Numbered from the stretch's first letter, positions 28,670 through 53,487 are shown. The stretch is DNA of 64,000 bases from Anaeromyxobacter sp. (GCA_049840735.1 JASGJN010000017.1:320001-384000), one strand, 5' to 3'. Notes: a model not told the origin generated them from the sequence alone. Made by a program: numbers and translations.

Positions 28670-28675
28670 GCGTCA

Positions 28676-28873: not shown

Positions 28874-28922
28874 GGGCCCGCCCGCGGCCTGTAATGTAGG
28901 ATGACGCGACCCCTCCCCCCCC
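28874..28922 (+). repeat. Cassette-junction repeat, copy 1 (internally deleted)
   Basis: ggcccgcccgcggcct-gtaatgtaggatgacgcgacccctcccccc. Confidence 0.85.
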
Positions 28923-29246
28923 ACTTCAGCCGCTGTGGCGCGATTCCCGTCGCCTCTCGGAACGCCACGAACGTGAGGCCGCTCGCCTCGAACGCCGCCA
29001 GCGCCGCTCGCCCATCGGCTTCGCCCCAGTACCGCCCGGCGGCGAGCCTGCGCAGTTGCGCCCGATCCACCCCGCTGATCCTCTTCGTCGTCGCCACGGT
29101 CACCTCCGTGGCGAAGCCTGCCGAACTGCCGCCAGGCTCGTCAGATGCGGTTCACCGGGCGCTTACAGATGCGGTTCACCGGGCGCTTACGCGAAGCCTG
29201 CCTCGGCGCCCTCACGCTCGGCAGATGCGGTTCACCGGGGGCTTAC
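28923..29246 (-). mobile_element. IS66-family left-end remnant: truncated tnpA plus three copies of the terminal repeat
   Basis: W..A..AFEASGLT..F..GI..RL.W tnpA-like ORF cut at the junction repeat. GTAAGC(G/C)CCCGGTGAACCGCATCTG at 29142-29166, 29166-29190 and 29222-29246. Confidence 0.7.
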
Positions 29247-29249
29247 GCT

Positions 29250-29590
29250 CCGACACCATCCTCGCGGTGTGCTCTACCGCCATCGGCACGAACTTCGGCG
29301 AGTCCGCTGGCCGCGGCGCACTCGACCAGAGCTTGATCGATCGTTGCGGGATCGAGCACGAGGGCCGCCGCCTCGAACTGCACCCGGTGGACCCGGTCGC
29401 CAACGCCCGCCGCAAACGCCTGCCCCGCAGGCCTGGCGAGGCTCCGGCCACCAGCACCGACTTTGACCCCACCCAGACGCTGCTCGACGCGGCCACCGGC
29501 CGCCGCCGCAAGGAGAACGACCGATGAGGGACTCGTACCTGACCGCCTTCGGGCTGCAGGAGCCGCCGTTCTCGAAAGAGATCGCCGACC
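29250..29590 (+). mobile_element. Remnant of a DDE/Mu-like transposase C-terminus plus start of an ExeA-like AAA gene
   Basis: LHPVDPVANARRKR..DFDP; followed by YLTAFGLQEPPFSKEI. Confidence 0.55.
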
Positions 29591-29637
29591 AGTGACTGGC
29601 CTCCTGCCGCATCAACCGGCGTGGCGAGACGTCACGC

Positions 29638-29898
29638 TCATTTCTGCCTTCGAGTCAATCGCCGCAGCACCGCGGCAAGGACCTCGGCGACGGTCCAAAG
29701 AACACCCACGACCAGGAGCGCAAGCGCGGAGTACGCAAGGATGGCCGCGTTCCTCACATGGATTGAATACTCAGCGTACTGCTCCGGCGTTGGGTCCTGA
29801 TATGGAATACCTACATAGTTGACCCAATACAGGAAGGCCAAGAGCCCAAACACTAACCCAGAGACAACAACAGTACGCCGCCATTTATGCCGATTCAT
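29638..29898 (-). CDS. Small 2-TM membrane protein (GIPYQDPT motif); probable orphan immunity protein
   Basis: Lower GC, two hydrophobic helices, GGAGG upstream of the ATG, preceded by a truncated ORF end at 29934-30060. Confidence 0.6.
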   Translation of the reverse strand: MNRHKWRRTVVVSGLVFGLLAFLYWVNYVGIPYQDPTPEQYAEYSIHVRNAAILAYSALALLVVGVLWTVAEVLAAVLRRLTRRQK

Positions 29899-30135
29899 CT
29901 GGCCCTCCCGCAACTCCGTCGGGCAGTCGTCTATCACTGCATGGATTTCGAAATTGGCGGCGGCATCTCAATGCCAAAAGGACTAGTCGGCGGCTCCGGC
30001 ACGGTGACCGCCAGGTCCGATGGAGCCCACCCTGGTTCCGACACTCCCAGCCCACGCACCGCCGGGGCCCGGGCAGCGGTGATGCCGGTGGAAGTGGGCT
30101 CACCCGAGAACCGGTGGCGACACAGCAAGCCTGCC

Positions 30136-30572
30136 GGGCTCGCCCGCGGCCTGCATATCCGAAACCGTAATGTAGAATGACGCGCCCCCCCCCGTAGCCA
30201 CCGCGCGCGGACGGGTCCGCCAGGTCAGGTCTGGCGGGCGGTCACGGGTGGTATGGGGTTTTCCACGGGGAGGAGAGGGAGTTAAGCGAAAGACCCATCA
30301 GGGGCGTCACGACCGGCTACCGGAAAGTTCTCGCGCGAGGCGGGGGAACAGTTGCGCGTGGGGCGTCGCCTTGCCCCAGGAAGCCTGCTGGGCCCGCCCG
30401 CGGCCTGCATATCCGAAAGTGTAATGTAGGATCACGCGACCCCTACCCCACGAGACCGGTGGCGACACAGCAAGCCTGCCGGGCTCGCCCGCGGCCTGCA
30501 TATCCGAAAGTGTAATGTAGAATGACGCGACCCCTCCCCCCTTAATGTAGAATGACGCGACCCCTCCCCCCC
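30136..30572 (+). repeat. Junction-repeat copies 2-5 (30136-30192, 30390-30450, 30481-30541, 30543-30572) enclosing the duplicated leader
   Basis: cgcccgcggcctgcatatccgaaa(gt/cc)gtaatgtag(a/g)at(g/c)acgcg(a)cccc repeated. Confidence 0.9.
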
Positions 30573-30704
30573 TGCCCGGCGCGGCAGCGTCGATCCGCGT
30601 GGCGAGGTCTCCAACGAGTGGATCCTTGGAGGTGAAGACTCGGGGGACCCGGGTGGCTGCTGCGTCCTGAATGAGGGGATCAGTCAGGGCGGAGGCCGCA
30701 ATAT

Positions 30705-31169
30705 CTAGCGGGATGCCTCCCGTCTCCCCGGCGGGATCGCTGGGTATGGGGCGGAGTCCTTATCGGTCGGATATCCATCACAGCACCAACGAATGGAACT
30801 GAACCGTTCCAACAGGGCGGCGTGTAACTGAATCGCCACCTCATAGCAGCACGCAGAACTGGCCGATGGAGCTCGACGCATGAGCGAACTCAATAAACCA
30901 ACGTTGCGTGTGGGCGCTATGGTGACGAGCCACTCGCCCGCTACCCCACTCGGCGCCCCCACTATCACTTGAATACTGCTCGCACCTTTCTCCGCGGTAA
31001 CGAACCAGCCGCAGTCTCGCCAATTCTCGAACTCACTGAACTGCCAGCCCTTGCCGACCAGAACCGCCATGAAGAACCTCAGCACCGGCAGACCCGCTGG
31101 CCTGTCATACTCATCGTCTGGAGCCACGTCTCCGACAAAAACAGCATTCTGCGTTACAGCACGCCGCAT
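30705..31169 (-). CDS. Hypothetical protein; probable immunity protein of orphan toxin 2
   Basis: Lower-GC 154-aa ORF directly downstream of the toxin-2 tip. Confidence 0.65.
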   Translation of the reverse strand: MRRAVTQNAVFVGDVAPDDEYDRPAGLPVLRFFMAVLVGKGWQFSEFENWRDCGWFVTAEKGASSIQVIVGAPSGVAGEWLVTIAPTRNVGLLSSLMRRAPSASSACCYEVAIQLHAALLERFSSIRWCCDGYPTDKDSAPYPAIPPGRREASR

Positions 31170-31285
31170 TTACCACTCCCGAGGATCGAGATCGTTGCGC
31201 TGGTCTCCAAATTACTCGCACGCATGGACTGAACTGGAACGGGGACGAGAAGCAGGACAGTCCATCACCCGCAGGGTCGGCCCCC

Positions 31286-34200
31286 TCACCTCCTCCAGCT
31301 ATCCCCGATACCATGGGCCCTCGGCGGGGGCGTCCGAGTCGGAGCATGTATCAGCGCATCCAAGCCTTGCCCTACCTTGACCCCCAGGTATCCTGCCACC
31401 GACGCCGCGGCAGGCGGAACTACTCTGCACGCCCAATCCACCGTCCTCGCATACAGCGCGGTCGAAGGAATTCCCCATTCCGGGGCCATTCCTTTCCAGT
31501 AATTCAGGCTGAGGGTGCGATGAAAGACCCCCCTCAGCGCCGGCTGATTCCACAAGTTGAACCCAGCATTCCGGATTCCCTGCGGAACCCAGGTCCACCT
31601 TTGTGGGAACAGCCAATGATCAAGGCTTCTACCCAATGCTGGACCGTTTTCCGCCCAGTACTCTCTACTGATCCTACCGTAGGAGCGCGGATCATAGAAG
31701 AAGCGCTGGACCCCCGTTGGCAAGCGGTTCCAAGCCCCACGGAAGAAGGCCCCGCCGCCAGCCTCGAGGGCGACGAACGACATCTGAATGCCGGCCGAGA
31801 CCTGGCCTACTTTCAGCGCCAAATCTCCGGCCGGCTGGCCCCCGAGTGCATCCATAACCTGCGAACGCGCGCCCGCCTCACCGGGCCGGCCGCACTGCTG
31901 AGCATACGTAATCAATTTCCATTTTGCATCATCATTGAACTGGGAAACTCCCGCCTCATTTGCGAGCGCGGCAGCAACCGTTCCAGGGGTAGGCACCCAC
32001 CCCCCAATGCTCATAAGCGTCCCCGTGGAACCCTTGTAATGTAGCCCGAGGGACTTCTCCGGATCGAAGCGGGACACAGTCGGACACTTCCCCTCTAGTT
32101 GTCCCCACTCTCCGGGTGGCGGAGCCATTTCCAACTCCCCCGTTTCGACACGATAGCGGGAACCGGCGTCCGCGTCTCCCTTGCTTCGTGGATTGGGGAT
32201 CGCATTTGGCTCGGAGGGAGTCGCACCAAGGAGCATGGACTGTAGAAGCGCCAGCCCACCACTGAAGCCAAAACCGCCCCCACCTGGTGATCCTCCCAAT
32301 GCAGCTTCACGGAGACTCGGCGAGGTACCTGTACCCGAGTCGCCAGGGCCAGCATTCGAGGTCGCTCCCAAGCCCGTCGAATCTCCGGGCGATACGCTCT
32401 CGGCGCCGGCGCGGGCTGACTCGTCATCCAGAGCCGCAGGAGGCGACGCATCCCCCGATTCATCCGGCTGGTCCTTGGCCGCGCCCGAGGCTGACAGCAC
32501 CAACCGATCCATACCTTCCGCATCCGCCCCATCGCTAGTCGACGACGGGCCGTCCCCAGCCGAGGCGGCCGTCGCCGTCACAGAAGCGCCCGCATTCGCC
32601 TTGGCCGGAGGCGGACCAGACACAAGTGCCTCGGTCGCATGCCTCAATCGATTGAACGCGTCTCTGCCGAAACCGTTATCCAATGCCTGCACAATTGCAC
32701 CACCCAGAGCGTTTCCGAATGAATCCGTGGCCACCTGCTTAATGTCCACGCGGCCGTTGACGACAATAGAAACGGCGCTTTGACGAATGATGCCGTTCAT
32801 GGTCTCGCGGAGCACCTGTAGTGTCCACCCTCTGTCAAGACAGTGCCGCCGGCGGTAATCGGGCGGGTTGAGCGGCACGGTCCCTGGTTGCTACGCAGCC
32901 GTCACGACGACGTCCCCGAGCTTCTCGGCCCGGTACTCCGCAGGCGTCTTCCAGCCCAGCGCCTGGTGCGGCCGCTGGGTGTTGTAGCGGTGCTGCCAGG
33001 CCAGCACCGCCTCACGGAGCTGCTCGGCGGTGTCCCAGTCGCGCAGCCAGATGACCTCCTCCTTCATCGTCCGGATCACCCGCTCCGCGACCGCGTTGCC
33101 GGTGGGCCGACCCACCGGGGCGAAGGTGTGGGTCAGGCCCCAGGCCGCCACCAGGGCGGCGCAGTCAGCGCCGGTGTACTGCGGCCCGTGGTCGGAGCGC
33201 AGTTCGACGCCGGGCGGCACGCCCCGCGGCATTCCAAACGCCGCTCGCAGGGCCTCCTGGACCGATTCCAGGACCGCCGGGCCGTGCTGGTCCTTGGTCA
33301 CCTGCAGCCCCAGCACGCTGCGGCAGCCGCAGTCGATGGTGGGGACCACCGCCACCCACCCGTCCTGCTTCGTCCAGGTCGTCGTGAAGTCGGTGGCGAT
33401 GCGGCGGTTCGGCTCCGGGACCACCACGTGGCCGCGGGTGGGTCTCACCCGGCTCGCGATCACGGGCCAGCACGAGGCCGTGGGCCCGCATCAGCGCGTG
33501 GACCCGCTTCTTGGAAACCTTGAGCCCCTGGCGCTTCAGCGTCGCCCAGACCTTCCGGACGCCCCAGGCCGGCTCCGCCTGGATGATCTGGCGGATCGCC
33601 TCCAGCACCACCTCGTTGGAGGTGTGCCGCGGCGCCCGCCGCAGCGTCACCACCCGGGCCGCTGGCCGGGGCCTCTTCGCGGCGTAGTACGCCGCCCTCG
33701 AGATGTTGAACGCCTCACAGAGCTGGGTCACAGTAGCGACGCCCGCCCGAGGTTCTCCCTGCTCATTTCCGCGACCTCGCGGGCCGAGAAGGGCGGGGCT
33801 TGATGCCCCATCGCCTTCTGCAGCAGCGTCACTGCACCGTCGCGTTCAGGGCCGTCTCCCGCATGACCTCGAGCTCCGCCTCCAGCTCGGTCTCCCGGGC
33901 CGACTTCCCCCGTGCCCTGCCGCAACGCAGCGTCGATGCCGGCCAGCGCGTCCGCCCGCCAGCCCTCCACCGTCTCCGGCAGGACTCCGAACCGCATCGC
34001 CACCTGGTCCACGGTGGCCTTGCCGCCCAGCAGCTCCAGCACGGCCCTGCGCCGATCCTCGGCGCTGCGCCGGCCCGGCCGTCCCCGCACGTTCTCCGGG
34101 GCCGCCGCGGCCTTCGCCGCCTCCGTCTTCTCCGCAGTCTTCTCGTCCTTCTTCACAGCCAGCCTTCTACCCGATCCGCTCCGGGTTTACCGACCCGAGG

Positions 34201-37105
34201 ACTGTCAACCTCGGCGAGGGGAACACCGTAGTCTCGCGGAGCACCGTCTCCCCAGCGCCGACCAACTGGTTCCCGCGAATGAGCGAATTATCAGAATGCC
34301 CAAGGTTCGAAAGCGCCCCGCCATAGAACACCTTGTCCGCTGCAGTGTTAAGCCCCGCAGACAAACTGGCCATCGCCATCGACTTCCAACTGAACTTGTC
34401 CTGCGTGCCCACCAGGATAGCAATGCCCTGCGACGCGGCGTTCTGAGCCGCAGCATTCAAGGCTGCTGCCCCAACCCGCAATGCGGTGTTCTGGATGCCG
34501 GAGATAGCTCCACTGCCCGCTCCAAGCACAGACGTGGCGGCGGCGACAGCAACCTGCTTCCAGCTGAAGCTCTCCTGCATGCCCATGGCCATTCCGACGA
34601 GCTGACCGGCAGCGGATCCCACAGCGGCACCGATGGCACCTGCGACCGTGCTAGCCGCGAAGCCCACGCTGAGGGCCCCCATCGCCGGTCCGAGCACCGC
34701 CAGTGCAGCCCCGGCGGTGAAGTACGCGGCCACCGCGGTGACCACGATCACCATGATCATCCCGATGACGCCGCACCCCTTGTTGGCGGGCATCGGGATG
34801 TTCGGCGTGGTGCTGCCGACGATCCGGGACTGGTCGTAGGGCTGGTACGTGTCGGCGGTGTTCTTGGAGCCGATCGCTCCGTTCGGGATGACCAGGGTCT
34901 GGCCGACGCGCAGGTCTGCGTCGGTGCGCAGGCCGTTGGCGTCGGCGATCAGGTACCAGAGGCTCGAGTCGCCGTAGGACGACTGGGCGATGGACTTGAG
35001 CGTGTCGCCCGCGCGGACCGGGTACTGGCCCACGGCGGCGGAGGGGTAGGCGTTGGTGATGGGCTGGTAGGTGAGGCCGAAGTTGCCCTGCGCGACGTAG
35101 TTCGGGTCGCCGTTGTCCTTGTTCTGCTTGTGCGGGTCGGTCCCCTCCCCGTACACGCCCATCACGTTGCCGTTGACCACCAGCTCGCGGAGGATGCGCT
35201 CCTCCTGCAGCTTCTGCAGGACGTGGCCGTCGGCGTCGTTGATGAAGCTGCGGTCGTAGGCGTTCTTGGAGGAGTCGTCGAGACCGATCAGGAAGCCGTT
35301 CCCGTCGTAGGTCTCGGTGGTGGTGCCCTTGTTGCCGGCGTCGTCCTCGCGATAAGCGACCACCTTGGCTTCCTTGTAGCCCTCCAGCTTCGCGAAGCTG
35401 ACCTCGAAGACCTGCTTGGCGCCGCTCGAGCCCTTGCTGGTGTAGTTCTTGACGTTGCCGGCGTCGTCGTAGCCGGCGCCGTCCGTCCACACCCCGGAGA
35501 CCTTGGCCTCGTAGCGGGTCTCGTTGTCGAAGGCCCCGTTGGCGTTCATCACCTTCATCGACTTCACGCGCCCGTTCTGGTCGTAGCGGGTCACGCGGTT
35601 GCGGGCGCCGTTGGCCTCTGCGTCGTTCTCCACCAGCTTGGCGCGGTAGCCCGGATCGACGTCGTCGGTGGTGCCGACCTTCACCACGCGCGAGGCGCGG
35701 TCGTACAGGCGTTCATCCAGCTTGAGCGCGTACTTCGGATCGAGCGCGTTCCAGTTCTGGTCGAACACGCCGGTCTTCACCGACTCGAGGCGGTTCAGGG
35801 CGTCGTAGGTGTAGTACTCGTAGTTCACGCCATCGCGCGACTCGAACACGGTCCAGGTCGTGGGCCCCGCGTAGTCCGAGCCCTGGGCGCGCGCCACCAC
35901 CTGCTTGCCCCAGGACACGTCCTTGATGCGGTTGCCGTTCTTGTCGTAGGCGAGGATGTGACCCTGGTCCTTGGTGATGTTGGCCAGGTCGCCGGCGTCG
36001 CCGTTGACCGCGCCGTCCACCAGGATCTGGCGGTTCATGGCGTCGAAGGCGAAGAACTGGTTCTTGGTGCTCGCCTTGGTGTCGTAGACGGTGTGGGTGC
36101 CGATCACCGGCGCGCCGTAGGCGCCGACCGGGCCGTAGTCGGTGACCACCCGCCGGGTCTGCGCCTGGTAGGTGGTCAGCTGGTGGATGCGGTTGCCGAC
36201 GGCGTCGTACTCGAAGAGCACCGAGACGCCGTCCATGGCCTCCACGGTCGCGAGTCGGCCCAGCGTGTCGTAGCCGAGCCGCTGGTTCTGGTAGGTGACG
36301 GCGTCGGTGGGTAGCGCCTCGTTGGCCTGGATGCCGACACCCGAGGCCAAGCCGCTGACCGGCGTGCCCTGGGTGGTCTGCTCGAGGATCCGCTTTCCGC
36401 CGTAATTGTAGGCGTAGACGGTGCGCTGGCCGATGGCCCGGTCGCGGATCTCGATCAGCTGACCGGCGGCATCATAGGCGTAGCCGAGGTTCTGGGCCGA
36501 GCGCTCGGTCGTCGCCGTGCTCCACTTGGCCACGAGCTGGTTGGCCTTGTCGTAGGCGAAGAGCGTCTCCGTACCGCCGATGTCCTTGTGCGACTTGAGC
36601 TGGCCCTTGTCGAAGGTCCAGGTGGCAACGGCGCCGTTCGCGTCCTTGTCCCCCACCTGGCGACCGGCCTCGTCGTACACCTGCTGGCTGATCTGGCCGC
36701 CCGGCTGCTTGGTGGCGATCAGGTTGCCGCGGAGATCGTAGGTGTACTCGACGCGCTCGGCGTTGGGATTCACCTGGGCGATCTTCCGCCCGGCCTGGTC
36801 GTACTCCATGGTCGTGGTGAGCTCGACCTTGCCGGCGACGGCCTCGGCGACCAGCGAGACGGCGTACGTGTCGCTGACCGTGTACGCCCCCACGCCCTCG
36901 CTCTTGATGCTGGTGTTCCGGCCCAGCTTGTCGAAGCCGTAGCGGGTGAGGTGGCCTTCGCCGTCCTCGACCTGGACCTGGTTGCCGAAGGCGTCGAAGG
37001 AGCGGGTGATCTCGCCGCCGTCGGCGTGGATCTCGCGCGTCAACTGGCCACCCTCGTCCCAGACCTGCTGGTTGAGATTGCCGTTGGCGTCCCGGTTGCC
37101 GATCT
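31286..37105 (-). pseudogene. Orphan LysM-Rhs toxin 2: C-terminal half only, cut at 37105 by IS66 and split by an IS3-family element at 32817-34230
   Basis: 34231-37105 is near-identical to toxin 3 (~55940-58810). The frame resumes across the IS as ...GETVLRETMNGIIRQSAV...; different tip after ATDSFGNAL. Confidence 0.9.
32817..34230 (-). mobile_element. IS3-family element copy 1 (orfA HTH + orfB rve integrase) with a 15-bp flanking direct repeat
   Basis: orfB motifs ATDFT, LRSDHGPQYT, GNAVAERVIRTMKEE, YNTQRPHQAL. Ends TGTAGTGTCC.../...GAACACCGTA; gtctcgcggagcacc at 32802-32816 and 34231-34245. Confidence 0.9.
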
Positions 37106-38270
37106 GTAACCGCTGCACGGACCCCGGTTAGCGGCGCGGGGCGGCCCACCGCACGCTGGCCGGCATGTCGAGTCGGGAGATCTGGGCGGAGCGGGTGGCA
37201 GAGTGGAGGGCGAGCGGGCTCAGCTCCCCCCGGTTCTGCGAGGGCAAGGGGTTCACGGCGGGCGGCCTGCGGCACTGGTCGCATCGGCTGAGGCACGGCG
37301 GCAAGTCGGCCGGCGCGGATCCGCGTGGCGAAGGTGGTGCGCCTGCCGGCAGTCCCGAGCGCGCCCGCGGCCCCGGACCTGGTGGTCGAGGTCGGCATGG
37401 CGCGCATCGTGGTTCGTCCGGGGTTCGACCGGGCGACCTTCGCCGCCGTGCTCGAGACGCTGGCCGCGCGTGCGGAGGGCACCGCGATGATCCCGCACGG
37501 GCGTGGATGTGTTCGTGGGGCTCGACCCGGATCGACCTGCGGTGGAGCTTCGACCGGCTCGCCGGCATCGGTGACGGAGCGGATCCGGCCGGGAGGCCCC
37601 GGGTGCGCGGCGCGCTCCTTCGTCTTCTTCGGGAAGCGGCGTGACGCGATGAAGGTCGCTCTTTCTGCGATGGGACGGGAGATGTGCACTCTTCTACAAG
37701 CGCCTCGACCGCGGCACACTGCAGGCTGCCGGACGCGCCGGAGGGTGCGACGAGCATCGCCATCGACGAGCGGGCGCTGGGACGACCTGCTCCGACGGGG
37801 ATCGAAGTGCAGGAGAAGTAAAGCGAAGGTCGCGGTGGTCCGCACCCTTTGACAGATCGCGCCGGCGTTTGACTACCAACGTGGTCGCGATGGCGGCGAC
37901 GACGGTGGAGGATCGGATCAAGGAGCTCGAGGCGGCGCTCGCTGCCCGCGATGCCGCCCTGGCCGCCACCGAGGCGGAGCTGGCGAAGGTGACGCAGGAG
38001 CGTGATCTGCTCCGCGCCTCGCACGAGCGGCTGCGGTTCGAGCTGGAGCTGCTGGAAGCGCCGCATCTTCGTGGCCAAGGTTGAGCGGGTGGACCACCGC
38101 GCAGCTCGAGAATGGAGTTCGCCGCGAAGCTGGCCGAGCTGAACCGGCTCGGGGGGTGGCTTGCCGCCGAAGGCAGGCGGCGAGGACGGCGCCGAGCCGA
38201 AGGAGAAGCGCAAGCCAACCGTAGCGCCGGGAACGCCGCGTCTCCAGGTCAGTCCGGAGGCAGAGAAGAC
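37106..38270 (+). mobile_element. IS66-family element, left part (tnpA, tnpB, start of tnpC), frameshifted and truncated
   Basis: Starts GTAACCGCTGCACGG; W..RV.EWRASGLS..FC tnpA; DLRWSFDRL..FVFFGKRRD tnpB; coiled-coil tnpC N-terminus. Confidence 0.85.
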
Positions 38271-38273
38271 GGT

Positions 38274-38575
38274 CGTTCTTGGGGGTGGGGCCTCGCCGGC
38301 TCCACCCCTTCTCTCTTTGCGCGGGCGGATGATCACCGAGGAGGATCGCGGCGTCGATCATCGGCGATCAGAAATCGGCGCGGCGGACAGGCGAGGCGCG
38401 CTCGCTCCACGAAACGGACCCAGATCTCGGCGCGCACAGGATCTTCAAGCGCCGCAGGCGCGAGACCGGCGGCGCGAAGGGTCAGCGGGAATCAGGTCTG
38501 GGCCCGCCCGCGGCCTGAATATCCGAAAGTGTAATGTAGGATGACGCGACCCCTACCCACGCGACCCCTACCCCA
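38274..38575 (+). repeat. ISAs1-type left end fused to junction-repeat copy 6 (38501-38575)
   Basis: Near-identical to 43813-44108 and to the inverse of 42346-42633; homologous to 51405-51635. Confidence 0.9.
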
Positions 38576-38858: not shown

Positions 38859-39713
38859 GTAAGCGCTGCACGAACCCCGTCTGGCGGCGGGCGGGCCGGG
38901 GAGGCAGGCTGGGCGCGTGGACTGGAACCACGCGCGAGCGCCAGGAGCGGCCCGGTCAGCCCGGCGACACCTGCTCACCCGCCACCGGGAGCGGCGGCGG
39001 GACGGTGAGCGTGCCGATCTCGTTGGCGAGCTCGGCGGGGTCGAGGCGCGCGCGGGTCTGGGCCCAGTACCTGGGTGCGAGCTCGAGGTAGCGGTCGCGC
39101 GGCCAGTGCGCGAGGACGCGGAAGAGGTCGCGCAGGTAGGCCTCGGGGTCGAGCCGGTGCAGCCGGGCCGAGGCGACGAGGGACAGGATGTGAGGCCGGC
39201 GAGTCCTCGCCGTGGTCGTGGCTGCCGACGAAGAGCCAGCTCTTCCTGCCGACGGCGACCCTGCGCAGCTCGCGCTCCGAGCGGTTGTTCTCGAGTTGGA
39301 GCCGCCCGTCCTCGAGCACGCGCATGAGCGCGTCCTTCTGCCGGACGGCGTAGCCGAGCGCCGAGGCGGACGAGCCCGCGCTGATCGCGGACGCGCTCGT
39401 ACTCCGCCTCGGCCCAGGCGAAGAAGTCGACCAGGTGCACGCGCAGGTGCTGACTACGCTGGCGCAGGATGGTCTCGGGCGGATCATTTCGCCAGAAGTC
39501 ATCGAGCGCGAACACGTACCCGATGCGCGCCAATCCCTCGCGGGCGACCTCGCTCTTCGTGCAGGTCGCCTCCCAGAACTTGCGTCGCGCGTGGGACCAG
39601 CAGCCGACCTCGACGCGGGTGTCCACCTCGCCGTCCTCGGGCGGCTTGTCCGGCTCGCGGAAGAGCACGTCGTAGACGCTCTTGGCGTCTGCCTGGATGT
39701 AGCCGGAGTACCC
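38859..39713 (-). mobile_element. IS66 tnpC 3' part and terminal repeat
   Basis: GYIQADA, GCWSHARRKF, LENNRSERELR.VAVGRKSWLF; end GTAAGCGCTGCACGAACCCC at 38859. Confidence 0.85.
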
Positions 39714-41125
39714 TGTAGTGTCCACCCTGTGTCAAGACAGTGCCGCCGGCGGTAATCGGGCGGGTTGAGCGGCACGGTCCCTGGTTGCTACGCAGCCGTC
39801 ACGACGACGTCCCCGAGCTTCTCGGCCCGGTACTCCGCAGGCGTCTTCCAGCCCAGCGCCTGGTGCGGCCGCTGGGTGTTGTAGCGGTGCTGCCAGGCCA
39901 GCACCGCCTCACGGAGCTGCTCGGCGGTGTCCCAGTCGCGCAGCCAGATGACCTCCTCCTTCATCGTCCGGATCACCCGCTCCGCGACCGCGTTGCCGGT
40001 GGGCCGACCCACCGGGGCGAAGGTGTGGGTCAGGCCCCAGGCCGCCACCAGGGCGGCGCAGTCAGCGCCGGTGTACTGCGGCCCGTGGTCGGAGCGCAGT
40101 TCGACGCCGGGCGGCACGCCCCGCGGCATTCCAAACGCCGCTCGCAGGGCCTCCTGGACCGATTCCAGGACCGCCGGGCCGTGCTGGTCCTTGGTCACCT
40201 GCAGGCCCCAGCACGCTGCGGCAGCCGCAGTCGATGGTGGGGACCACCGCCACCCACCCGTCCTGCTTCGTCCAGGTCGTCGTGAAGTCGGTGGCCATGC
40301 GGCGGTTCGGCTCCGGGACCACCACGTGGCCGCGGGTGGTCTCACCCGGCTCGCGATCACGGGCCAGCACGAGGCCGTGGGCCCGCATCAGCGCGTGGAC
40401 CCGCTTCTTGGAAACCTTGAGCCCCTGGCGCTTCAGCGTCGCCCAGACCTTCCGGACGCCCCAGGCCGGCTCCGCCTGGATGATCTGGCGGATCGCCTCC
40501 AGCACCACCTCGTTGGAGGTGTGCCGCGGCGCCCGCCGCAGCGTCACCCACCCGGGCCGCTGGCCGGGGCCTCTTCGCGGCGTAGTACGCCGCCCTCGAG
40601 ATGTTGAACGCCTCACAGAGCTGGGTCACAGTAGCGACGCCCGCCGAGGTCTCCCTGCTCATTTCCGCGACCTCGCGGGCCGAGAAGGGCGGGGCTTGAT
40701 GCCCATCGCCTTCTGCAGCAGCGTCACCTGCACCGTCGCGTTCAGGGCCGTCTCCCGCATGACCTCGAGCTCCGCCTCCAGCTCGGTCTCCCGGGCCGAC
40801 TTCCCCGTGCCCTGCCGCAACGCAGCGTCGATGCCGGCCAGCGCGTCCGCCCGCCAGCCCTCCACCGTCTCCGGCAGGACTCCGAACCGCATCGCCACCT
40901 GGTCCACGGTGGCCTTGCCGCCCAGCAGCTCCAGCACGGCCCTGCGCCGATCCTCGGCGCTGCGCCGGCCCGGCCGTCCCCGCACGTTCTCCGGGGCCGC
41001 CGCGGCCTTCGCCGCCTCCGTCTTCTCCGCAGTCTTCTCGTCCTTCTTCACAGCCAGCCTTCTACCCGATCCGCTCCAGGTTTACCGACCCGAGGACTGT
41101 CAACCTCGGCGAGGGGAACACCGTA
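39714..41125 (-). mobile_element. IS3-family element copy 2, without matching flanks
   Basis: Near-identical to 32817-34230 with indels at different positions. Confidence 0.9.
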
Positions 41126-42305: not shown

Positions 42306-42345
42306 TGGTCGGGGGTGCCGCCCATCAGGCATCGGGTGCACCCTT

Positions 42346-42676
42346 GGGGGTAGGGGTCGCGTCATCCTACATTACACTTTCGGATATTCAGGCCGCGGGC
42401 GGGCCCAGACCTGATTCCCGCTGACCCTTCGCGCCGCCGGTCTCGCGCCTGCGGCGCTTGAAGATCCTGTGCGCGCCGAGATCTGGGTCCGTTTCGTGGA
42501 GCGAGCGCGCCTCGCCCGTCCGCCGCGCCGATTTCTGATCGCCGATGATCGACGCCGCGATCCTCCTCGGTGATCATCCGCCCGCGCAAAGAGAGAAGGG
42601 GTGGAGCCGGCGAGGCCCCACCCCCAAGAACGGCCTACTCGCGCAAAGAGAGGCAGGCCGAGGAGCAGGAATCATG
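42346..42676 (-). repeat. Junction-repeat copy 7 (42346-42405, inverted) plus ISAs1-type left end
   Basis: ggggtaggggtcgcgtcatcctacattacactttcggatattcaggccgcgggcgggcc then cagacctgattcccgctgac. Confidence 0.9.
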
Positions 42677-43103
42677 CTGTCGCCACCGGTCTCGGGTGAG
42701 CCCAGTTCCACCGGTCCCACCGAGCACCCGGTTCCCACCTGAGATGGTGGATCGCCTCTTCGATCTGGCGTTCTTCCTCGTCGGAGCCATTCACCGGTGG
42801 TCAACTGCCTTGACCTTGGTGTTCGCGGAGGACCTTGAACGAGCCCACCAGCCCGTCTCTGCCCTGACCTGGAGGGATTCTGTTCGGCCCAGGCAGCAGG
42901 GGCCGGCGCTCGCCGGTGCCCAGGCGCCGATATGCCTCCACCCCACCGGGTGGGCTCATTGTTGCCGCTCACGCTGGTTGATGGAGACGCGAACAGCCTC
43001 GCTGCTGGCCATCGCGGCGTGAGCGCGGCGCGCGCAGTGGCGTGATGGAGGTCGCGGGCCGCCCGACCGCCGGGCGCGGGGGCCGCGGCGACGGGCGGGG
43101 ACG

Positions 43104-43599: not shown

Positions 43600-44108
43600 C
43601 AGCGAACGAGATCGGCACGCTCACCGTCCCGCCGCCGCTCCCGGTGGCGGGTGAGCAGGTGTCGCCGGGCTGACCGGGCCGCCCCTGGCGCTCGCGCGTG
43701 GTTCGCGTCCACGCACCCAGCTTGCCGCCTCGGCCTACCCGCCGCCAGACGGGGTTCGTGCAGCGGTTACTGATCTCCTGCTCCTCGGCCTGCCTCTCTT
43801 TGCGCGAGTACGCCGTTCTTGGGGGTGGGGCCTCGCCGGCTCCACCCCTTCTCTCTTTGCGCGGGCGGATGATCACCGAGGAGGATCGCGGCGTCGATCA
43901 TCGGCGATCAGAAATCGGCGCGGCGGACGGGCGAGGCGCGCTCGCTCCACGAAACGGACCCAGATCTCGGCGCGCACAGGATCTTCAAGCGCCGCAGGCG
44001 CGAGACCGGCGGCGCGAAGGGTCAGCGGGAATCAGGTCTAGGCCCGCCCGCGGCCTGAATATCCGAAAGTGTAATGTAGGATGACGCGACCCCTACCCCA
44101 CTACCCCA
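43600..44108 (+). mobile_element. IS66 end (to 43770) + ISAs1 left end (43771-44040) + junction-repeat copy 8 (44041-44108)
   Basis: Inverse match to 38859-39025 ending in ...cagcggttac, followed by the same unit as at 38274-38575. Confidence 0.85.
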
Positions 44109-44417
44109 CACGAACACTCGCGAGACACAAACTGCCGACATAGCCGGGCGCTTTCGCCAGCCGGCGGGGATGATTTCGGCCGAGGATCAGGTCACCCGCT
44201 TCGACTGGGCGAGGTGCCCCGACCTTGCAGGACGCCTAAAGACTTGCTCGTGCTCATGGCGGCGGAAGGCCGGGAACATGCCCTCGGCAGAATCGAGTGG
44301 GCTACGAATACAACGTGCCTGGAGTAGCTACCGCCCGCGTTCGAGGCTCGGCTTGAAGAGTAGTTCGCAGACGCCTGTCGACCGCCCTCCCGACATCCGA
44401 ACCGGATTCGAATCCGT

Positions 44418-45059
44418 TCAGGATCCACTCCGCAAGCCAAAAAGCCACACATTGAGCGCAGCCTCCTGTCCATCGAAGTCCTCGGTCAACACAAGCAATG
44501 CTCGCTGTCCCAACATATGGATTCCGCAGAAGCATGCATCATCCGAGACCGCAACATCCTGCGACACCCAACGCCTCCCATTGTCCGACACCACAACTGC
44601 CACACGAAGAGCATAGCTACCAATCGTGTTCGACGTCGCATAAACGACCAAAGCCTCCCGCTCACCGCGCGTACGAACAGACTTAATGCGCCCCCCGCGA
44701 GGCAGGATGGCCGCCAGCTCGGCTTCTTCACCAGAGTGATCAACTGCGTTCCCGAAATCACAACGAGGAGGCGGGAGCGCTGAGCCGCGAGGCAAGTGGT
44801 GATCGAAGTCCTTCAGCCACTCACCATTTCTCCACCGGATCGAAATAACGCTGCCGTGAGGCCTACCGGCCTCTTTTGCCGAATTACGCCAAAACGCCAC
44901 CGTACCTGCGTACAGCGTCACCGCCTCGCCACTCAACGCGACAGAAGCATTTCCTCCGGACAACACGATCGGAGGCTGCAGCGGCCCCTGGTCTGCCAAG
45001 ACCACGTCACCACACACGAGACAGAGAACCGCAAAGGCGACTCTCCGAGCGCCATTCAC
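44418..45059 (-). CDS. Exported hypothetical protein; probable periplasmic immunity protein
   Basis: Signal peptide MNGARRVAFAVLCLVCGDVVLA; GTG overlaps the stop of the upstream toxin fragment (GTGA); lower GC. Confidence 0.65.
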   Translation of the reverse strand: MNGARRVAFAVLCLVCGDVVLADQGPLQPPIVLSGGNASVALSGEAVTLYAGTVAFWRNSAKEAGRPHGSVISIRWRNGEWLKDFDHHLPRGSALPPPRCDFGNAVDHSGEEAELAAILPRGGRIKSVRTRGEREALVVYATSNTIGSYALRVAVVVSDNGRRWVSQDVAVSDDACFCGIHMLGQRALLVLTEDFDGQEAALNVWLFGLRSGS

Positions 45060-45602
45060 ACTGCGCCCCCCTTCGTCTTCATTGCCGACCGAATCACTTC
45101 AGTCCTGTACCAATGCAAGAAATGGTAGTCGCGATTATCGTTGTAGCCACCCTCTCTTCGGCCCATGCGATAGTCATACTTATTGCCCGGCGGCTTCTCC
45201 CCCACACCACCACAATCCCCCTTCTCGAGAACCCTGTTCGCCTGGGTGCATGCGCCTCATATCGGGTATCGGGCCCGGCTATTTGAACCAGCGTTATATC
45301 CGGAACACGTCCGTTGCGCTATCGTTTCGGCCGAAGCCCCGGCATATCCGCGATCGCTTGACGGTACGCGCGCACAACCATGGCTACCCCAAAATCCACA
45401 TTCCTTTCCCAGTTTCCCTCAACATCGGCCGCCACCGGCGTGAACAGTTTGCCGTTGGGGGCCACGATATTGTATTTCGCCAACGCATCCTTGTCAACGA
45501 GCCCCGGGGGCGGCAGATTGCGACTATTTACCTGCATAACACCCCGATCGATTGACGCCACCCTATACTTTACATTGCCCCAGAGTTCGTACGTAGCTGG
45601 TC
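45056..45602 (-). pseudogene. Orphan lytic transglycosylase/lysozyme-like toxin tip, 5'-truncated and frameshifted
   Basis: SIDRGVMQVNS (GLMQ-like), NVDFGVAMV, and after a shift near 45338 SGYNAG. Confidence 0.6.
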
Positions 45603-45604
45603 AG

Positions 45605-48099: not shown

Positions 48100-48602
48100 C
48101 CACCTTCGCCACGCGGATCCGCGCCGGCGATTTGCCGCCGTGCCTCAGCCGATGCGACCAGTGCCGCAGGCCGCCCGCCGTGAACCCCTTGCCCTCGCAG
48201 AACCGGGGGGAGCTGAGCCCGCTCGCCCTCCACTCTGCCACCCGCTTCGCCCAGATCTCCCGACTCGACATGCCGGCCAGTGTGCGGTGGGCCGCCCCGC
48301 GCCGCTAACCGGGGTCCGTGCAGCGGTTACTGATCTCCTGCCTCTCGGCCTCCTTCTCGTTTGCGCGAGTTCGGCCGTTCTGGGGGTGGGGCCCGCAAGC
48401 TCCACCCCTTCTTCATTTGCGCGGGGCGGATGATCGCCGAGGAGGATCGCGGCGTCGATCTTCGGCGATCAGAAATCGCCGTCATCAGCGGGCAGGGCGC
48501 GCCCTCACCACGAAACCGACCCCGAAACTCGGCGCGTGTCGGATCTTCAAGCGCCCCAGGCAGGAGCGCGGTGGCGCGAGAGGTCAGCGGGAATCAGGTC
48601 TG
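48100..48602 (-). mobile_element. IS66 left end/tnpA fragment (48100-48330) abutting an ISAs1-type left end (48331-48602)
   Basis: Inverse copy of 37106-37335; ends gtcagcgggaatcaggtctg. Confidence 0.8.
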
Positions 48603-48628
48603 CCCCGCAGAACCCGCCGCGCGACAGA

Positions 48629-51600
48629 TCAGTGCCCCGTCAGCGCGCGCAAGGGCAGCCAGGTTCCAGGCGTGCCTGCGCGAGTACACTTCCAGCCCGT
48701 AATCACATACTTCTCAAGAATAGCCCCCAACTCCACGGGGACGCCGTTCTCGATGGTGTCACCCACGTTGCACCTGATCTTTCCAGCGAACGCCACGTCG
48801 GGACTCGCATCAACACCCGCATCCAAGTACCGAAACCCGACCGGCAACGCGGGCGATTGATTTATGTAGCTCAAATACGATCCTGGCTCGATCCAATTGC
48901 CGCGCACTTGGTGCCCGACCGTACCTGACACGTTCAGCGCATACGGCACCGGAGAAGTCGCACTTCCAAGGAAAAAGTTCCCCTCAACAATGGCCGCCCC
49001 GTTGTCCACCAGCGACACATACCCATTGCGGATGGAGTTGCCCTTGAACACCAGCCCATAGCCACCGACGCGGATCTCCCGGCCAGCGGAGCTCAGATCG
49101 AAGCGGTTTCCTTCGAAGATGACGCCCGCCCGGGAATTCCAAGCCTGCGGCCCGAACGTGTTGGAGCACACATTGTTGGCGAAGACCAGTCCATCCTTGA
49201 GCCGGCCTCCCGCGTAATAGTCCCCAACGCAGTGACCGCCATTGACGAACACGTTGCCGGCGATCGTCACATGCTCGTTGTTCGCGTTGATCTCGCTCGT
49301 GAACAGAACGTGCTCGGTCAAATCGGTCGACGTGGATGCGTTTCCAGTAATAGTGATGTTCGATGCGTCACATATCTCCACGAACCTGCCCCCGCCCGTC
49401 TTGACATTGGCGGAGATGGTCGTGGGCCCGACATTACGCGTCGGCGTGATGCGAGACTGAACGCCAAGCGGGTTGATGAACCTGTTCCCCTCAACCACTG
49501 CGTTCGCCGTCCCGTCCGAAAGCGCAACATCTTCGCCAAACGTATGCCAGCTGCGGCCAGTGCCCTCGCAATGATTGCCGGCGAACCGAACCCCGTCAGC
49601 ATTCCGCGCAAGAATCGAGTAGTTCGCTACCCCCCCAAACTCATTGTCGTGAACATTGATGTTTCTATTGGCCGCACCATGGTAGGCATCCGCAAACACC
49701 GCGGTCCGAGGCGTGACAAACTTGCACCCCACGACCTCCACACCGACATTGCCCTCCAGCGCAAGCGGATACCAGTTCTCGGTCGGCAGATAGGTCGTTC
49801 CCCCGTGGGAGGTCTGGGTATTCGAGAGGCCAAACCCGAGGTTCTCGACCTTCACACTGCTGCAGCCGGAAAAGAAGAAGGCGACGCGCTCTTCCTCCAC
49901 CCCCTCCACCACGATATTGACCACCCCTTCGCCCCCAGACCCGATCCGCGCTGACGCGGGATGATCTTCGCCGGCATCTCGGCGCCGCTCTCGCAGCGGC
50001 GGGACGCAGGTCGCCCAGCGGCGTCGGCCGCGGGACGGGTCAGGTTGTCAGCGCGCAATGAAGAAGGGGCGGCCTGCGGGCCGGTGATTCAGGTGACGGC
50101 GGCGGGCCCGTGCTGATCGGCGACCCGGGTGACGAGCAGCGCGTCGCGGAGGGTCTCCGCGGCGCGGGCCCAGGCGATGGGGCTGCCGTCCTTGCGAGGC
50201 GCCAGGGCCCGCCAGGAGCTCAGCGCGTTGTAGCCGATGATCCGCAGCCAGCTGACAGTCTCGATGGCGGCGCGGTTCGCCTGGCAGGGGTGGCCATCGT
50301 CCTCGCCCAGCACCACGTCCAGGGTCCAGTGGCAGCGGTTCTCGATGCCCCAGTGCAGACGGACGAGCGCCAGCTCCTGGTTGTGGGTCAGGTTCCCAGC
50401 CGGGATCGAGGTGACGAAGTACCGCTGCTCGACCGCCACGATCTCGCCGCGCCGGTCGGTCGTGGTCTGGCAGACGTACCAGAGCTGCTGGGCGCCCTCC
50501 ATGACGACGGATGGGCTGCCGGCGACGTCGCGGACGTACAGCTCGCGCACGATGGTGTGGCCCCTGTACCGCTCGGCGGTCCGGGCGACCGGGTCACCAA
50601 TCGTGTACTCGCCGTGCTCGCGGGCGAAGGCGTGCAGGTACGGCTGGTTGCCCTTGAGGCCGAACAGGTACCAGCAGCCGAGCGAGCTCACGAGCTCCGC
50701 GTTCTCACGGGCGCAGAGACCGGCGTCGCCGGTGACGATGCGGAAATGCGCGCCCAGCGCGTCGTGGACCTTGGGGAGCAGTTCCCGGAACGCCGGGGAC
50801 TCGCCCTCCTTGGAGCCGATGATCCGCTGCCCTACGCAGGGACAGGCCGCGGACGAGGTCAGCGCGGCGCGGAGGGTGCCGAAGGTCTGCACCGACGAGC
50901 CCTCGGCGTCGTAGGCGGACTGCAGGGCGCCCGGCAGCTGCTCGCCGTCGACCCGGGACCAGGTCCCCTTGCCGTCGAAGCTCATCACGCCGACGGGGAA
51001 GCGGTCGTGCCTCACCACCTTGCGGGCGAAGAAGATCCTTCGCCTGCGCCAGGACCGTCTGCTCCAGGCCGGCAGGCGACTGCTGGGCGAGCAGGCGGTA
51101 GAGGGTGGTGTCGCATGGTTTCCCCACGACCGAGAGCCCCAGCGTTCGACGGGCGCCGAGGCCGAGGTCGGCGAAGAAGTCTTCGGCGCGACGCAGGCTC
51201 CGACAGCCCACGGAGAAGGCGGCGGCCAGGCCTCCCAGCAGGCCGAGGTGGTCGTGGACCACCCAGGCGTCCTCTCGAGGATCCTCGACCTCCCGGTCCC
51301 AGGGGATGTCGGCGTGCCGCAGGGCACGTCGGGCTTGTGCTTCGGTGATCGGCATGATCTTCTTCCTCTCGGCCTTCCTCACTTCATTACGCGCGAGGTT
51401 CCGGCCGTTCTTGGGGGGTGGGGGCCCGCGAAGCCTCCACCCCTCTTTCACTACGCGCGAACGGATGATCGCCGAGGAGGAACCCGGCGTCGATCTTGCC
51501 GATCAGGAGTTCGAGGCGATGGCGGGCGGAGCCGGCCCGAGCCACGAAACTCACCCTCGTCTCGGGGCGAAGTGGAGTCTCAAGCGCCCCAGGCGCGAGA

Positions 51601-52029
51601 ACCGCGAGGCGACGGGTCAGCGGGAATCAGGTCTGCCCCTTCGCCCCGCAGAATCAGATTCTTCTTCCCGCGAACCTGGACGATCGTCATTCTCCTTCCG
51701 TACGGGGCGCCCAGATCTTTGTAGTCAACCCAATGAGCATCGTACTCCCGGAAGGCAGCAGCATTGAGGCGATACGTTCCCGCCGGAAAGATGATGATGG
51801 CGTTATCCGGAGCCGCAGCAACAGCCGCCACGATTCCTCGGGTGTCGGCCGTTGCGTTTCCGACCCCTGATGCCCCAAAGTCCATGACATCAACTCGAGT
51901 GGCGAACCTGTCGGCAATGTACCGCGCGGTTGTCGAGCCGGTCGCCCGCGCCCAAGATTCAGACACGTCCCCGCTAACCGCCTGAGACAGTACCCATGCA
52001 CTCATCACCGCAGCAAACGTGGTCATCAC
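48629..52029 (-). pseudogene. Tailspike-like right-handed beta-helix (pectate-lyase-like) protein, ~562 aa, split by ISAs1
   Basis: N part: VDVMDFGA.G....DT.....A....IIFPAGTYRL. C part: Asn-ladder beta-helix repeats and GWKCTRAGTPGTW. Removing the IS and one target copy restores ...LILRGEGVVNIVVEG... in frame (1689 nt). Confidence 0.85.
49936..51635 (-). mobile_element. Complete ISAs1-family element; transposase 50089-51355 with an indel near 51030
   Basis: SFDGK, IVTGDAG, LKGNQP, RLHWGIENRCHWTLDVVLGED. IRs CAGACC(C/T)GAT(C/T)C(G/C)CGCTGAC; ccccttcgcccc repeated on both sides. Confidence 0.93.
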
Positions 52030-52111
52030 AGCCCCCAGATGAGATCAAAGCCGCATTCACATAATCGCCGGCATGCCATTTGCGCATGCCCGCCACAACG
52101 ACAATCTACAC

Positions 52112-52590
52112 TGTCGCCACCGGCGTCCAAGGGCACCGGTTCCACCGGTATCACCGGTGCCCATGAGCCCGCCCGGCGGGTCGGAGGCAGATCACGGCCC
52201 GGGCACCCGCGAGCGCGGCTGCTGCCTGGGCCCTCCAGGCCAGAGCAAAGACAGGCTGCTCGCGACTGAGCTGGGTAAGCCGCCGCTCAGCGACGACCTC
52301 GCGACCCTGCAGCAGATCATGAACCAAGACCTGGAGCGCGACCCCGGCGGCAGCGGGAAGATCCGCGAGGGCGTGGCCCCGGACCGCCGGGCCTCCTTTC
52401 AGCTGGTGTCCACCGAACCGGATCAAGCCCAACTCGCTCCCTGTAGCGCCCCGACGGTGGCGTTGGCGAGCGAGGCCACGCGCTTGGCGTGGAGGTCGCA
52501 GTCGAGGATCGAGGACACGAAGTCGTGCACGCGGTGGGGGCGAATGGCTTGGGTGCGCATGGGCCCCGCACCATGATTCCAGGTCCACCG
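52112..52590. mobile_element. Mosaic of IS scraps: TGTCGCCACCGG end, IS1182-like piece, IS4-like N-terminus
   Basis: QDLERDPGGSGKIREGVAPDRR (+); DLHAKRVASLANATVGAL (-); the same TGTCGCCACCGG end occurs at 42678 and, inverted, near 30122 and 30467. Confidence 0.5.
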
Positions 52591-52629
52591 ACCGTCTACA
52601 ACGGCGCCCATCCCATGACGGAGGGACGT

Positions 52630-52875
52630 TCAGGGCGTCCGAGGAACCGCGGCTACTGCGACGAGAGTATCAGAGCCACCGAGCACTCGGCGCTCCACGC
52701 GAACAAGCGTCCCCGGTGTGAACTCCCACTCCTCGTCGGCAGCGTCGTACCCTTCCGGCTCCAAGAGCAGTACCGCGTCCGCACCGACAGGCGTGGCGGG
52801 TGCGGGCCGGTAGACTTCGATCCCTTCGCCGAGAAGGCGCACGTAGACGCGCGTCGTATCAGTACTTGAATCCAT
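52630..52875 (-). CDS. Small immunity protein of the colicin E5-like RNase
   Basis: VYVRLLGEG..VYRP...E.WEF.PG; overlaps the toxin stop. Confidence 0.75.
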   Translation of the reverse strand: MDSSTDTTRVYVRLLGEGIEVYRPAPATPVGADAVLLLEPEGYDAADEEWEFTPGTLVRVERRVLGGSDTLVAVAAVPRTP

Positions 52876-53105
52876 CGCCGCCGGCATGGATGACCTCCTT
52901 GGTGACGTTGTCAACCACCACGGACCGCAACGTCTGCGGGTGCACGTACCTTGTGGCCGCGTTGCCGGGATTCACGAGATTCTCTGCGGCGAACGCCTGA
53001 CCGCTCCGCATCGCCTCGCCGATCTGCTCCGGCGTCCACCCCCGCTTCGTCATCTGGCTCGCCCACTTAGCATCCAACTTGAACGCACCGAGCTTCCAGT
53101 CAGGG
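52859..53105 (-). pseudogene. Orphan colicin E5-like ribonuclease toxin tip
   Basis: KW.SQM.KRGWT.EQI..A...N..N.ATRY.HP...SVVVDNVT.EVIH; no start codon, abuts the IS21 fragment. Confidence 0.8.
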
Positions 53106-53404
53106 ATGGGGGGATCGGTCAGAGTACAGGCAGTTCTGCGCGCGCTATCTGGAGTGGGCGCGGCCGCTCTCGGCAACGCTGCGGCAGGCCCACCACGCCG
53201 GCGAGAAGACCTTCATCGACTTCAGCGGCAGCGGCCTGGATGTCGTGGACCCGATCACCGGCGACCGGAGCAAGGCGGTGCTCTTCGTCGCGGTGCTGGG
53301 CGCGTCGAACCTGACCTACGCCGAGTCGGTGCTCCACCAGGACCTGCCGACGTGGGTGGGCTGCCACCCCCGGGCCTTCGAGTACTTCGGCGGCACCAGC
53401 GAGA
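53106..53404 (+). mobile_element. IS21-family istA internal fragment
   Basis: GEKTFIDFSG..DPITG..LFVAVLGASNLTYAE..W..CH.RAFEYFGG. Confidence 0.85.
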
Positions 53405-53406
53405 TC

Positions 53407-53487
53407 GGGTCAGCGGGAATCAGGTCTGGCCCGCCCGCGGCCTGAATATCCGAAAGTGTAATGTAGGATGACGCGACCCCTACCCCA
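53407..53487 (+). repeat. ISAs1 terminal 22 bp plus junction-repeat copy 9 (53429-53487)
   Basis: gggtcagcgggaatcaggtctg-gcccgcccgcggcctgaatatccgaaagtgtaatgtaggatgacgcgacccctacccca. Confidence 0.9.

Follow-up and report, generated by a model that had tools for sequence, protein, structure and literature searches.

The 64,000-nucleotide stretch of Anaeromyxobacter sp. DNA analysed here (GCA_049840735.1, JASGJN010000017.1:320001-384000; the window, in what follows) carries two Rhs genes on the minus strand, Rhs1 (19145-28669), with YD/RHS repeats, and Rhs2 (54450-64000), which runs past the window end. The DNA between them holds an orphan Rhs fragment, small open reading frames (ORFs), insertion sequences (ISs) and nine copies of an oriented repeat of about 60 bp. 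The original prediction, made from the window sequence, interpreted this repeat as a recombination site or element end that captures or reorders toxin/immunity cassettes. Here we describe the repeat, the genome-wide family to which it belongs and a transposase gene that likely serves it.

A search of the window with the 21-nt core of the 60-mer, allowing up to three mismatches, gave seven matches (30155, 30409, 30500, 38519, 42367 on the minus strand, 44059 and 53446) against none in 100 shuffles. These correspond to full copies at 30136, 30390, 30481, 38501, 42346 (inverted), 44041 and 53429, respectively, and direct reading together with approximate matching added a core-deleted copy at 28874 and a half copy at 30543, so that the nine positions reported originally are borne out. 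Eight of the nine share one orientation, and copies of the 60-bp subfamily are 89-100% identical to each other. The core-deleted copy (28874-28930, minus strand) lacks 14 nt of the core (cctg[..]taatg), lies 205 nt upstream of the Rhs1 start (28669) and joins an IS66-like ORF fragment at its outer end, i.e. the end that reads CCCC in the window. Four same-orientation copies then follow within 440 bp (30136-30572), all on the minus strand. The copy at 30136-30193, the most diverged in the window, has a type B inner flank. The copy at 30390-30449 has an inner flank (30191-30389) about 91% identical to the Rhs1 upstream region (28676-28873; alignment of 30191-30449 against 28676-28919). The copy at 30481-30541, again with a type B inner flank, is inserted immediately outside it, and the half copy (30543-30572), an outer 30 nt duplicated in tandem, lies 130 nt downstream of the ORF at 30705-31169.

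The remaining copies are associated with IS remnants. The inner side of the copy at 38501-38560 (minus strand) abuts the right end of an ISAs1/IS4-like fragment (38270-38500), and its outer end carries a 15-nt micro-duplication. The single inverted copy (42346-42405, plus strand) lies 40 nt downstream of a plus-strand ORF (41436-42305) and has an ISAs1/IS4-like end fragment on its inner side (42406-42677), as has the minus-strand copy at 44041-44100, downstream of the ORF at 44418-45059 (fragment at 43771-44039). These three copies represent one unit of IS end plus box that has been triplicated, with 98-99% identity. All three end fragments derive from a diverged ISAs1/IS4-like variant, a further end of which is found at 48331-48602. 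The last copy in the window (53429-53487, minus strand) follows the C-terminal region of Rhs2 and the small ORFs at 53855-54481 and 53650-53871, and its inner side retains just about 25 nt of the ISAs1/IS4-like end.

Candidate immunity ORFs reside in islands of low GC content (57-63% versus about 71% elsewhere). A copy of the repeat lies 40-370 nt behind each of five such low-GC cassettes and has the orientation of its cassette, also at the single plus-strand one. The ORF boundaries given in the original prediction (30705-31169, 44418-45059 and 53650-53871 on the minus strand, 41436-42305 on the plus strand) are correct, but its description of them as parts of toxin/immunity cassettes is less firm. 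Only Rhs repeats, one colicin-E5-like match (E-value 6e-6) and the low GC content speak for it, and none of the five putative immunity ORFs (30705-31169, 41436-42305, 44418-45059, 53650-53871 and 53855-54481) matches a Pfam family at an E-value of 0.001 or better.

In genome-wide searches, the half of the 60-mer with the CCCC end proved to occur as a dispersed motif. What is conserved is a box of 30 nt that reads, on the strand of the upstream gene, (G/C)TAG followed by GGGTCGCGTCC(T/A)T..ACATTAC(A/C)CTTTCG. The genome of the window (G000) contains 33 copies, of which nine lie in the window, three in a second Rhs locus on contig C4 and 19 are dispersed, while two diverged copies flank the transposase gene described below; this count comprises 34 loose pattern matches, minus three without the ACATTAC core, plus the copies at 28874 and 30543. 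All dispersed copies are located outside long ORFs. Of the 31 full copies, 22 have a TAG next to the box (GTAG in 16, CTAG in five and ATAG in one; counted manually). Each strand of the box has a stop codon, one the TAG and the other the TAA within GGGTAATG. Copies in the Rhs loci carry an additional GC-rich stretch of about 28 nt (GGATATKCAGGCCGCGGGCGGGCC), and all 12 copies of this 60-bp subfamily belong to the two Rhs loci. Besides the array at 30136-30572, same-orientation pairs occur 742 bp and 470 bp apart. The link to toxin cassettes is accordingly not specific, as 21 of the 33 copies are found outside Rhs loci, where most directly follow the stop codon of an ordinary gene. The original prediction had named scattering without orientation bias or cassette link as a result that would speak against it; the family is indeed scattered, but its orientation to the upstream gene is strict everywhere.

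The placement of the dispersed copies is precise. Seventeen dispersed copies were examined. In 14 of them the box lies 0-7 nt behind the end of a same-strand ORF of at least 87 codons; the other three lack one. The stop codon at these 14 junctions is TAG in 12 cases and TGA in two, which is unlikely to arise by chance (P about 3e-4) because TAG terminates only 930 of the 2514 long ORFs in the genome. Ten of the upstream genes have unrelated Pfam identities (AdoHcyase, G3P_acyltransf, PhoU, RibD_C, PLDc, Aldose_epim, Esterase, MCPsignal, SBP_bac_1 and TPR), and since all of them share the same orientation relative to the box, the orientation rule seen at the immunity genes is a property of the whole family. 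The box is often situated between convergent genes.

Comparison with relatives provides the corresponding empty sites. In three congeners ahcY ends in TAC TAG, followed by 13 nt and the ATG of the next gene, with no box; in G000 the box comes immediately after the same TAG, together with some 885 bp of additional DNA ending in ...GGGCTAG, and only then come the 13 nt and the ATG. This G000-specific insert, between ahcY and bacA/uppP (G000:C26:186701-187587; L001:2002-2888), has a TAG on both sides and encodes a 222-residue ORF with a signal peptide on the opposite strand. The distance from phoU to the next conserved gene is 20-93 nt in relatives versus about 1.2 kb in G000, where the insert has one box at its start and a second after an ORF of 87 residues. 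The orthologues of plsY and of a TPR gene in relatives end in TAG (or TGA) with no box, and a box-free TAG end is also seen for the orthologues of gene X. The remaining dispersed loci are accessory DNA that lacks synteny to relatives. Because relatives keep the stop codon without the box, the box at dispersed sites is, judging from these alignments, an insertion directly after native stop codons. When the far end of the inserted unit was sought, TAG was found on both sides at ahcY only and not at phoU, the other loci having no synteny. Elsewhere, a RibD_C-family gene with its own TTGACC-type promoter region lies between two same-orientation boxes (G000:C26:548206-548982; L002:2007-2783), and the opposite strand has a GNAT-like ORF that extends into the box and ends there at the TAA of GGGTAATG. 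Short GC-rich repeats of other families populate intergenic regions in many genomes within the genus and often adjoin the box, for example ...CCTTCGACTCCG...CTACGCTCAGG... and CGTCGTCCCTCCGCGCCTCCGGAACGGCCGCTTCGCTCGGAC (L001:2086-2161 and 3788-3840; L026/L028 downstream of plsY; L007:2100-2160 and 2530-2580).

A scan of the genome for Y1 transposases of the HUH type yielded six matches. The best is an ORF of 305 residues at G000:C17:604621-605535, on the contig of the window and 220-285 kb away from it. The encoded protein contains the HUH motif HYH and a tyrosine in AYIHLNP, matches Pfam Y1_Tnp (E-value 2e-9) and has as its best profile match in the PDB the structure 4ER8, the E. coli TnpArep (E-value 2e-5), with IS200/IS605 transposases at about 0.07; phmmer against the PDB gave no match. 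Its C-terminal part weakly resembles DnaA domain IV in profile searches. Many of its homologues are labelled RayT by JGI, and one source assigns a homologue to Anaeromyxobacter. The gene is single copy in G000 at an E-value of 1e-10 or better and is flanked by two inverted box-like sequences at C17:604543 (plus strand) and 605629 (minus strand) with their GGGG ends pointing outward (GGGGGTCAAGCCCTTCTAGATTACCCTTTCG and, at the opposite flank, the reverse complement of GGGGGGTCAATCCATCCGACATTACCCTTTG). The right flank also contains a GC-rich stretch resembling the GGATATKCAGGCCGCGGGCGGGCC extension of the Rhs-locus copies, a likeness that is suggestive only. A second Y1 gene (C17:580.5-581.2 kb) has no box-like flanks, and a search for Y2 transposases of the IS91 type found no match, nor did its positive control. 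The original prediction had allowed for an HUH or RAYT enzyme (REP-associated tyrosine transposase, REP denoting the repetitive extragenic palindromic sequences of bacteria) encoded elsewhere in the genome, and this option has gained substance, as the enzyme serving the box is likely to be the RAYT-like protein encoded at C17:604621-605535.

The box is specific to this species. The box model matches 30 sites in G000 and no site in any of 91 other genomes from the same taxonomic family, an exact-pattern search found no box in 40 relatives, and exact-pattern scans of species-genome and metagenome collections returned only chance matches that lacked the TAG and CTTTC parts. RAYT homologues with about 60% identity are present in only two of 36 congeners, G009 and G008, where each is located between inverted copies of a box variant particular to that species (GGGGTCAAGTCCTTCCACTTG... 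for G009, GGGGTCAGRCCCTTCCACTTTCCAC... for G008). The variants amount to 13 copies in G009 (control, 1) and 20 in G008 (control, 0), counted with a tightened pattern, GGGGTCRNNNSCTTCCAC having proved insufficiently strict for this GC-rich genus, with counts close to the controls. Several of the G008 and G009 variants form inverted doublets predicted to fold into near-perfect hairpins of 25-30 bp (-41 to -63 kcal/mol; L078-L084). Doublets together with a flanked RAYT constitute the REPIN-RAYT pattern, as portrayed in the literature.

The two ends of the box differ in their surroundings. BLAST found no outer flank (beyond the TAG) in common between any two copies, except for trivial overlaps within the tandem array at 30136-30572, in agreement with the earlier observation of unrelated sequence past the CCCC end. 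The 12 copies of the Rhs loci, on the other hand, have inner flanks in common that extend contiguously from the box over 24-294 nt, and a single pair of dispersed copies has 81 nt in common. Between the Rhs loci on C17 and C4, all three shared segments (337, 142 and 105 nt) stop at the outer end of the box. On C4 a box copy also precedes an Rhs gene at the position homologous to the copy 205 nt upstream of Rhs1. With unshared outer flanks, shared inner flanks and homology that stops at the box, this end of the box, the outer one, is a genuine terminus or breakpoint, as originally proposed, and the micro-duplications noted at this end are visible at 30543-72, 38561-75 and 44101-08.

These observations converge on the conclusion that the 60-bp repeat is probably a locus-restricted subfamily of a species-specific, GTAG-tagged, REP-like element that is served in trans by the RAYT at G000:C17:604621-605535. 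By analogy with Y1 HUH enzymes, the RAYT would introduce a nick into single-stranded DNA at or beside the boundary between the TAG and the G of the box and join the box end 3' of another TAG; the joining step has a parallel in the IS200/IS605 elements, whose insertion takes place 3' of a short word in the target. Both cleavage and joining are proposed here, and we infer them from this analogy. Selection would retain only harmless insertions, namely those directly behind the stop codon of an operon's final gene. Within the Rhs loci, the box may first have landed after immunity genes and upstream of Rhs genes, and may then have been multiplied by segmental duplication, inversion and IS traffic, with its outer end acting as a recurrent breakpoint. 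Tandem arrays in one orientation would fit the repeated use of a TAG that is recreated or retained by each box.

The resemblance to GTAG-tagged REP/RAYT (TnpArep) systems of E. coli, Pseudomonas and Stenotrophomonas and to REPIN-RAYT systems is extensive. It includes a short extragenic repeat with a terminal GTAG or TAG that often supplies the TAG stop codon of the upstream ORF; the comparison of the terminal tag draws on PMC3733652. It also includes a species-specific sequence, a single-copy Y1 HUH transposase between two inverted repeats and, in the congeners, doublets that form long hairpins. The Anaeromyxobacter family departs from these systems in that the 30-nt box is itself non-palindromic, occurs as singlets only and has a low copy number (33), that the RAYT has a C-terminal domain like a helix-turn-helix or the DnaA C-terminus, and that the 60-bp subfamily is confined to Rhs loci. 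IS200/IS605 elements and the non-autonomous PATEs (palindrome-associated transposable elements) likewise combine a Y1 HUH enzyme with asymmetric ends devoid of terminal inverted repeats, and they too insert immediately 3' of a short word in the target, without evident duplication of target DNA. Here, in contrast, the enzyme gene is single copy, there is no complete multi-copy IS, no conserved subterminal hairpins were detected, and the IS200/IS605 TnpA proteins rank below TnpArep as matches of the RAYT.

Several results weigh against a REP-RAYT origin. Classical REPs are hairpins. An alignment fold of 14 box copies contained no conserved hairpin, and the 45 nt beside the box fold with a mean of -9.8 kcal/mol, no better than random genomic 45-mers (-8.7 kcal/mol) or shuffles (-10.2 kcal/mol); a variable GC-rich hairpin next to the box, considered as a candidate, was dropped after this control. 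Inverted doublets (REPINs) are absent from G000, where, apart from the two RAYT flanks (1086 bp apart), the nearest pair on opposite strands is 1740 bp apart. The copies flanking the RAYT belong to a minor variant (GGGGTCAAGCCC / GGGGTCAATCC) that is about 76-87% identical to the main family by manual count on the alignment; the same variant is also represented by two dispersed copies at C20:99888 and C22:556416. The NCBIfam model REP_Tyr_transpos ("REP-associated tyrosine transposase") scores the protein at 71.3 bits, below its curated cut-off of 80. A further congener, G017, has eight box-like copies, clustered at C1:465.9-467.6 kb and C9:25-26 kb, and no RAYT homologue at an E-value of 1e-10. 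Finally, the outer junctions in the Rhs loci are mostly located away from gene stops, one in the IS66-like ORF (28922) and one within an Rhs coding sequence on C4, and simple TAG-targeted insertion therefore does not explain them.

Among other explanations, homologous exchange deserves the most attention. The 60-bp subfamily could act as a 3' homology patch, so that RecA-type recombination between the shared Rhs core, upstream of a cassette, and the 60-mer downstream of it would swap or stack cassettes, a scheme that is compatible with a REP origin. It would account for the copy behind each of the five low-GC cassettes, for the restriction of the subfamily to two Rhs loci and for the high identity of its members. 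We nonetheless regard it as unlikely: a sharp end of homology with micro-duplications at the outer end is not a product of homologous exchange, no copy-bounded cassette is common to both loci, where the shared pieces are the inner flanks of 105-337 nt, three of the copies go back to the single triplicated unit, and 60 nt is a short substrate. A more active role for the box is envisaged if the RAYT works on single, non-palindromic boxes in a one-ended fashion, nicking at the TAG/G boundary and transferring the box to a new TAG together with adjoining DNA of varying length, and in the Rhs loci the box would then drive the stacking and reshuffling of toxin/immunity cassettes. Candidate cargo would include the 885-bp gene-bearing ahcY insert, with its terminal ...GGGCTAG, the RibD_C gene between two boxes and the Rhs upstream regions; this scenario appears to us quite unlikely. 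We give still less credence to a functional RNA or transcription signal, such as a terminator, a stabiliser of 3' untranslated regions or a portable promoter, with copies kept by selection and not by transposition, which we consider highly improbable. Such a signal would suit the position right after stop codons, often between convergent genes, and the stop codons on both strands, and REPs are reported to affect termination and mRNA stability (PMC3733652). The copies have no sigma-70-like promoter or terminator, Rfam family or conserved structure, though, and their absence from all 91 other family genomes is unexpected for a signal needed by housekeeping genes. A consensus scan of 28500-31300 found no sigma-70 promoter and two terminator-like sites at chance level, both outside the copies, which leaves the portable promoter suggested in the original prediction without support; Rfam searches of the whole window and of 28500-31000 returned nothing relevant.

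The site of a tyrosine recombinase, Xer/pdif-like or integron attC-like, which captures or reorders cassettes, is scarcely credible by now. Oriented short sites 3' of small gene cassettes are indeed what the window has in common with integron attC arrays and Acinetobacter pdif modules, and the original prediction also pointed to an AT-rich core, a short inverted ATCC..GGAT and a match to 8 of 11 positions of the E. coli XerD arm. A match of this quality, however, is expected about 0.11 times per 60-mer on both strands, or about once in nine 60-mers, and is within chance. Inspection of the 60-mer shows neither a second arm in dyad symmetry nor a CATTA partner for TAATG, and a GTTRRRY/RYYYAAC core is likewise absent, GTT occurring on neither strand. 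None of the 107 ORFs of at least 80 residues with starts between 28792 and 54450 matches a tyrosine recombinase family, the ATCC..GGAT pairing is missing in dispersed copies, and most of the family stands singly after ordinary chromosomal genes. With neither attC cores nor a dif-like dyad nor, among the 107 ORFs scanned, a linked tyrosine recombinase, capture in the manner of integrons or pdif modules is not supported.

If the repeat is a REP-like element mobilised by its RAYT, a reading as a dedicated system for shuffling Rhs toxin cassettes gives way to one of a documented kind, and a REP-RAYT system is added in a high-GC lineage. Its unusual traits are the singlet, non-hairpin boxes, the exact placement at TAG stop codons and the outer end of the subfamily as a recurrent breakpoint in polymorphic-toxin loci. 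Should the RAYT act on single boxes, this would bear on how RAYTs move REPs.

The IS content of the window was considered in its own right. A full-length ISAs1/IS4-like element (49918-51648, plus strand) encodes DDE_Tnp_1 and DDE_Tnp_1_assoc domains and has the terminal repeats CAGACCYGATYCGCGCTGAC. Nine full-length copies were inspected genome-wide, and direct repeats of about 10 bp can be read at the ends of several. The box is not the end of this known IS, as all nine copies end in ...AATCAGGTCTG followed by unrelated host DNA with no box. The Rhs loci, with their ISAs1-type copies and orphan C-terminal fragments, are reminiscent of the E. coli Rhs elements and their associated H-repeat, which we take to belong to the ISAs1 family, but the 60-mer is no part of an ISAs1-type IS. 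The IS66 tnpA said to be cut at 28922 can be upheld in part: IS66-type terminal repeats and an ORF of 103 residues run into the box, and the ORF lacks Pfam support. Three tandem IS66-type terminal repeats are found at 29126-29250 (GTAAGCGCCCGGTGAACCGCATCTG on the minus strand). Two IS3-family copies (32808-34230 and 39704-41125) are 99% identical.

The last 260 or so residues of Rhs1 (19145-20500) are rich in Arg, Gly and Pro and apparently out of frame, and DNA homology with the core of Rhs2 extends to about 18223; Rhs1 has probably suffered a frameshift near its 3' end or is read there in the wrong frame. The orphan Rhs C-terminal fragment (31286-37118, minus strand), about 94% identical to part of Rhs2 and accompanied by the candidate immunity ORF at 30705-31169, is split by the IS3 copy at 32808-34230 and cut at 37106 by an IS66-like end. 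An ORF of 80 residues at 45319-45561 (minus strand), which has no Pfam match, includes VMQVNSRN, by eye similar to the active-site region of lytic transglycosylases. The ORF of 105 residues at 52859-53176 (minus strand) is the one that contains the colicin E5-like ribonuclease domain, with no Rhs core in front of it, and is possibly an orphan toxin tip.

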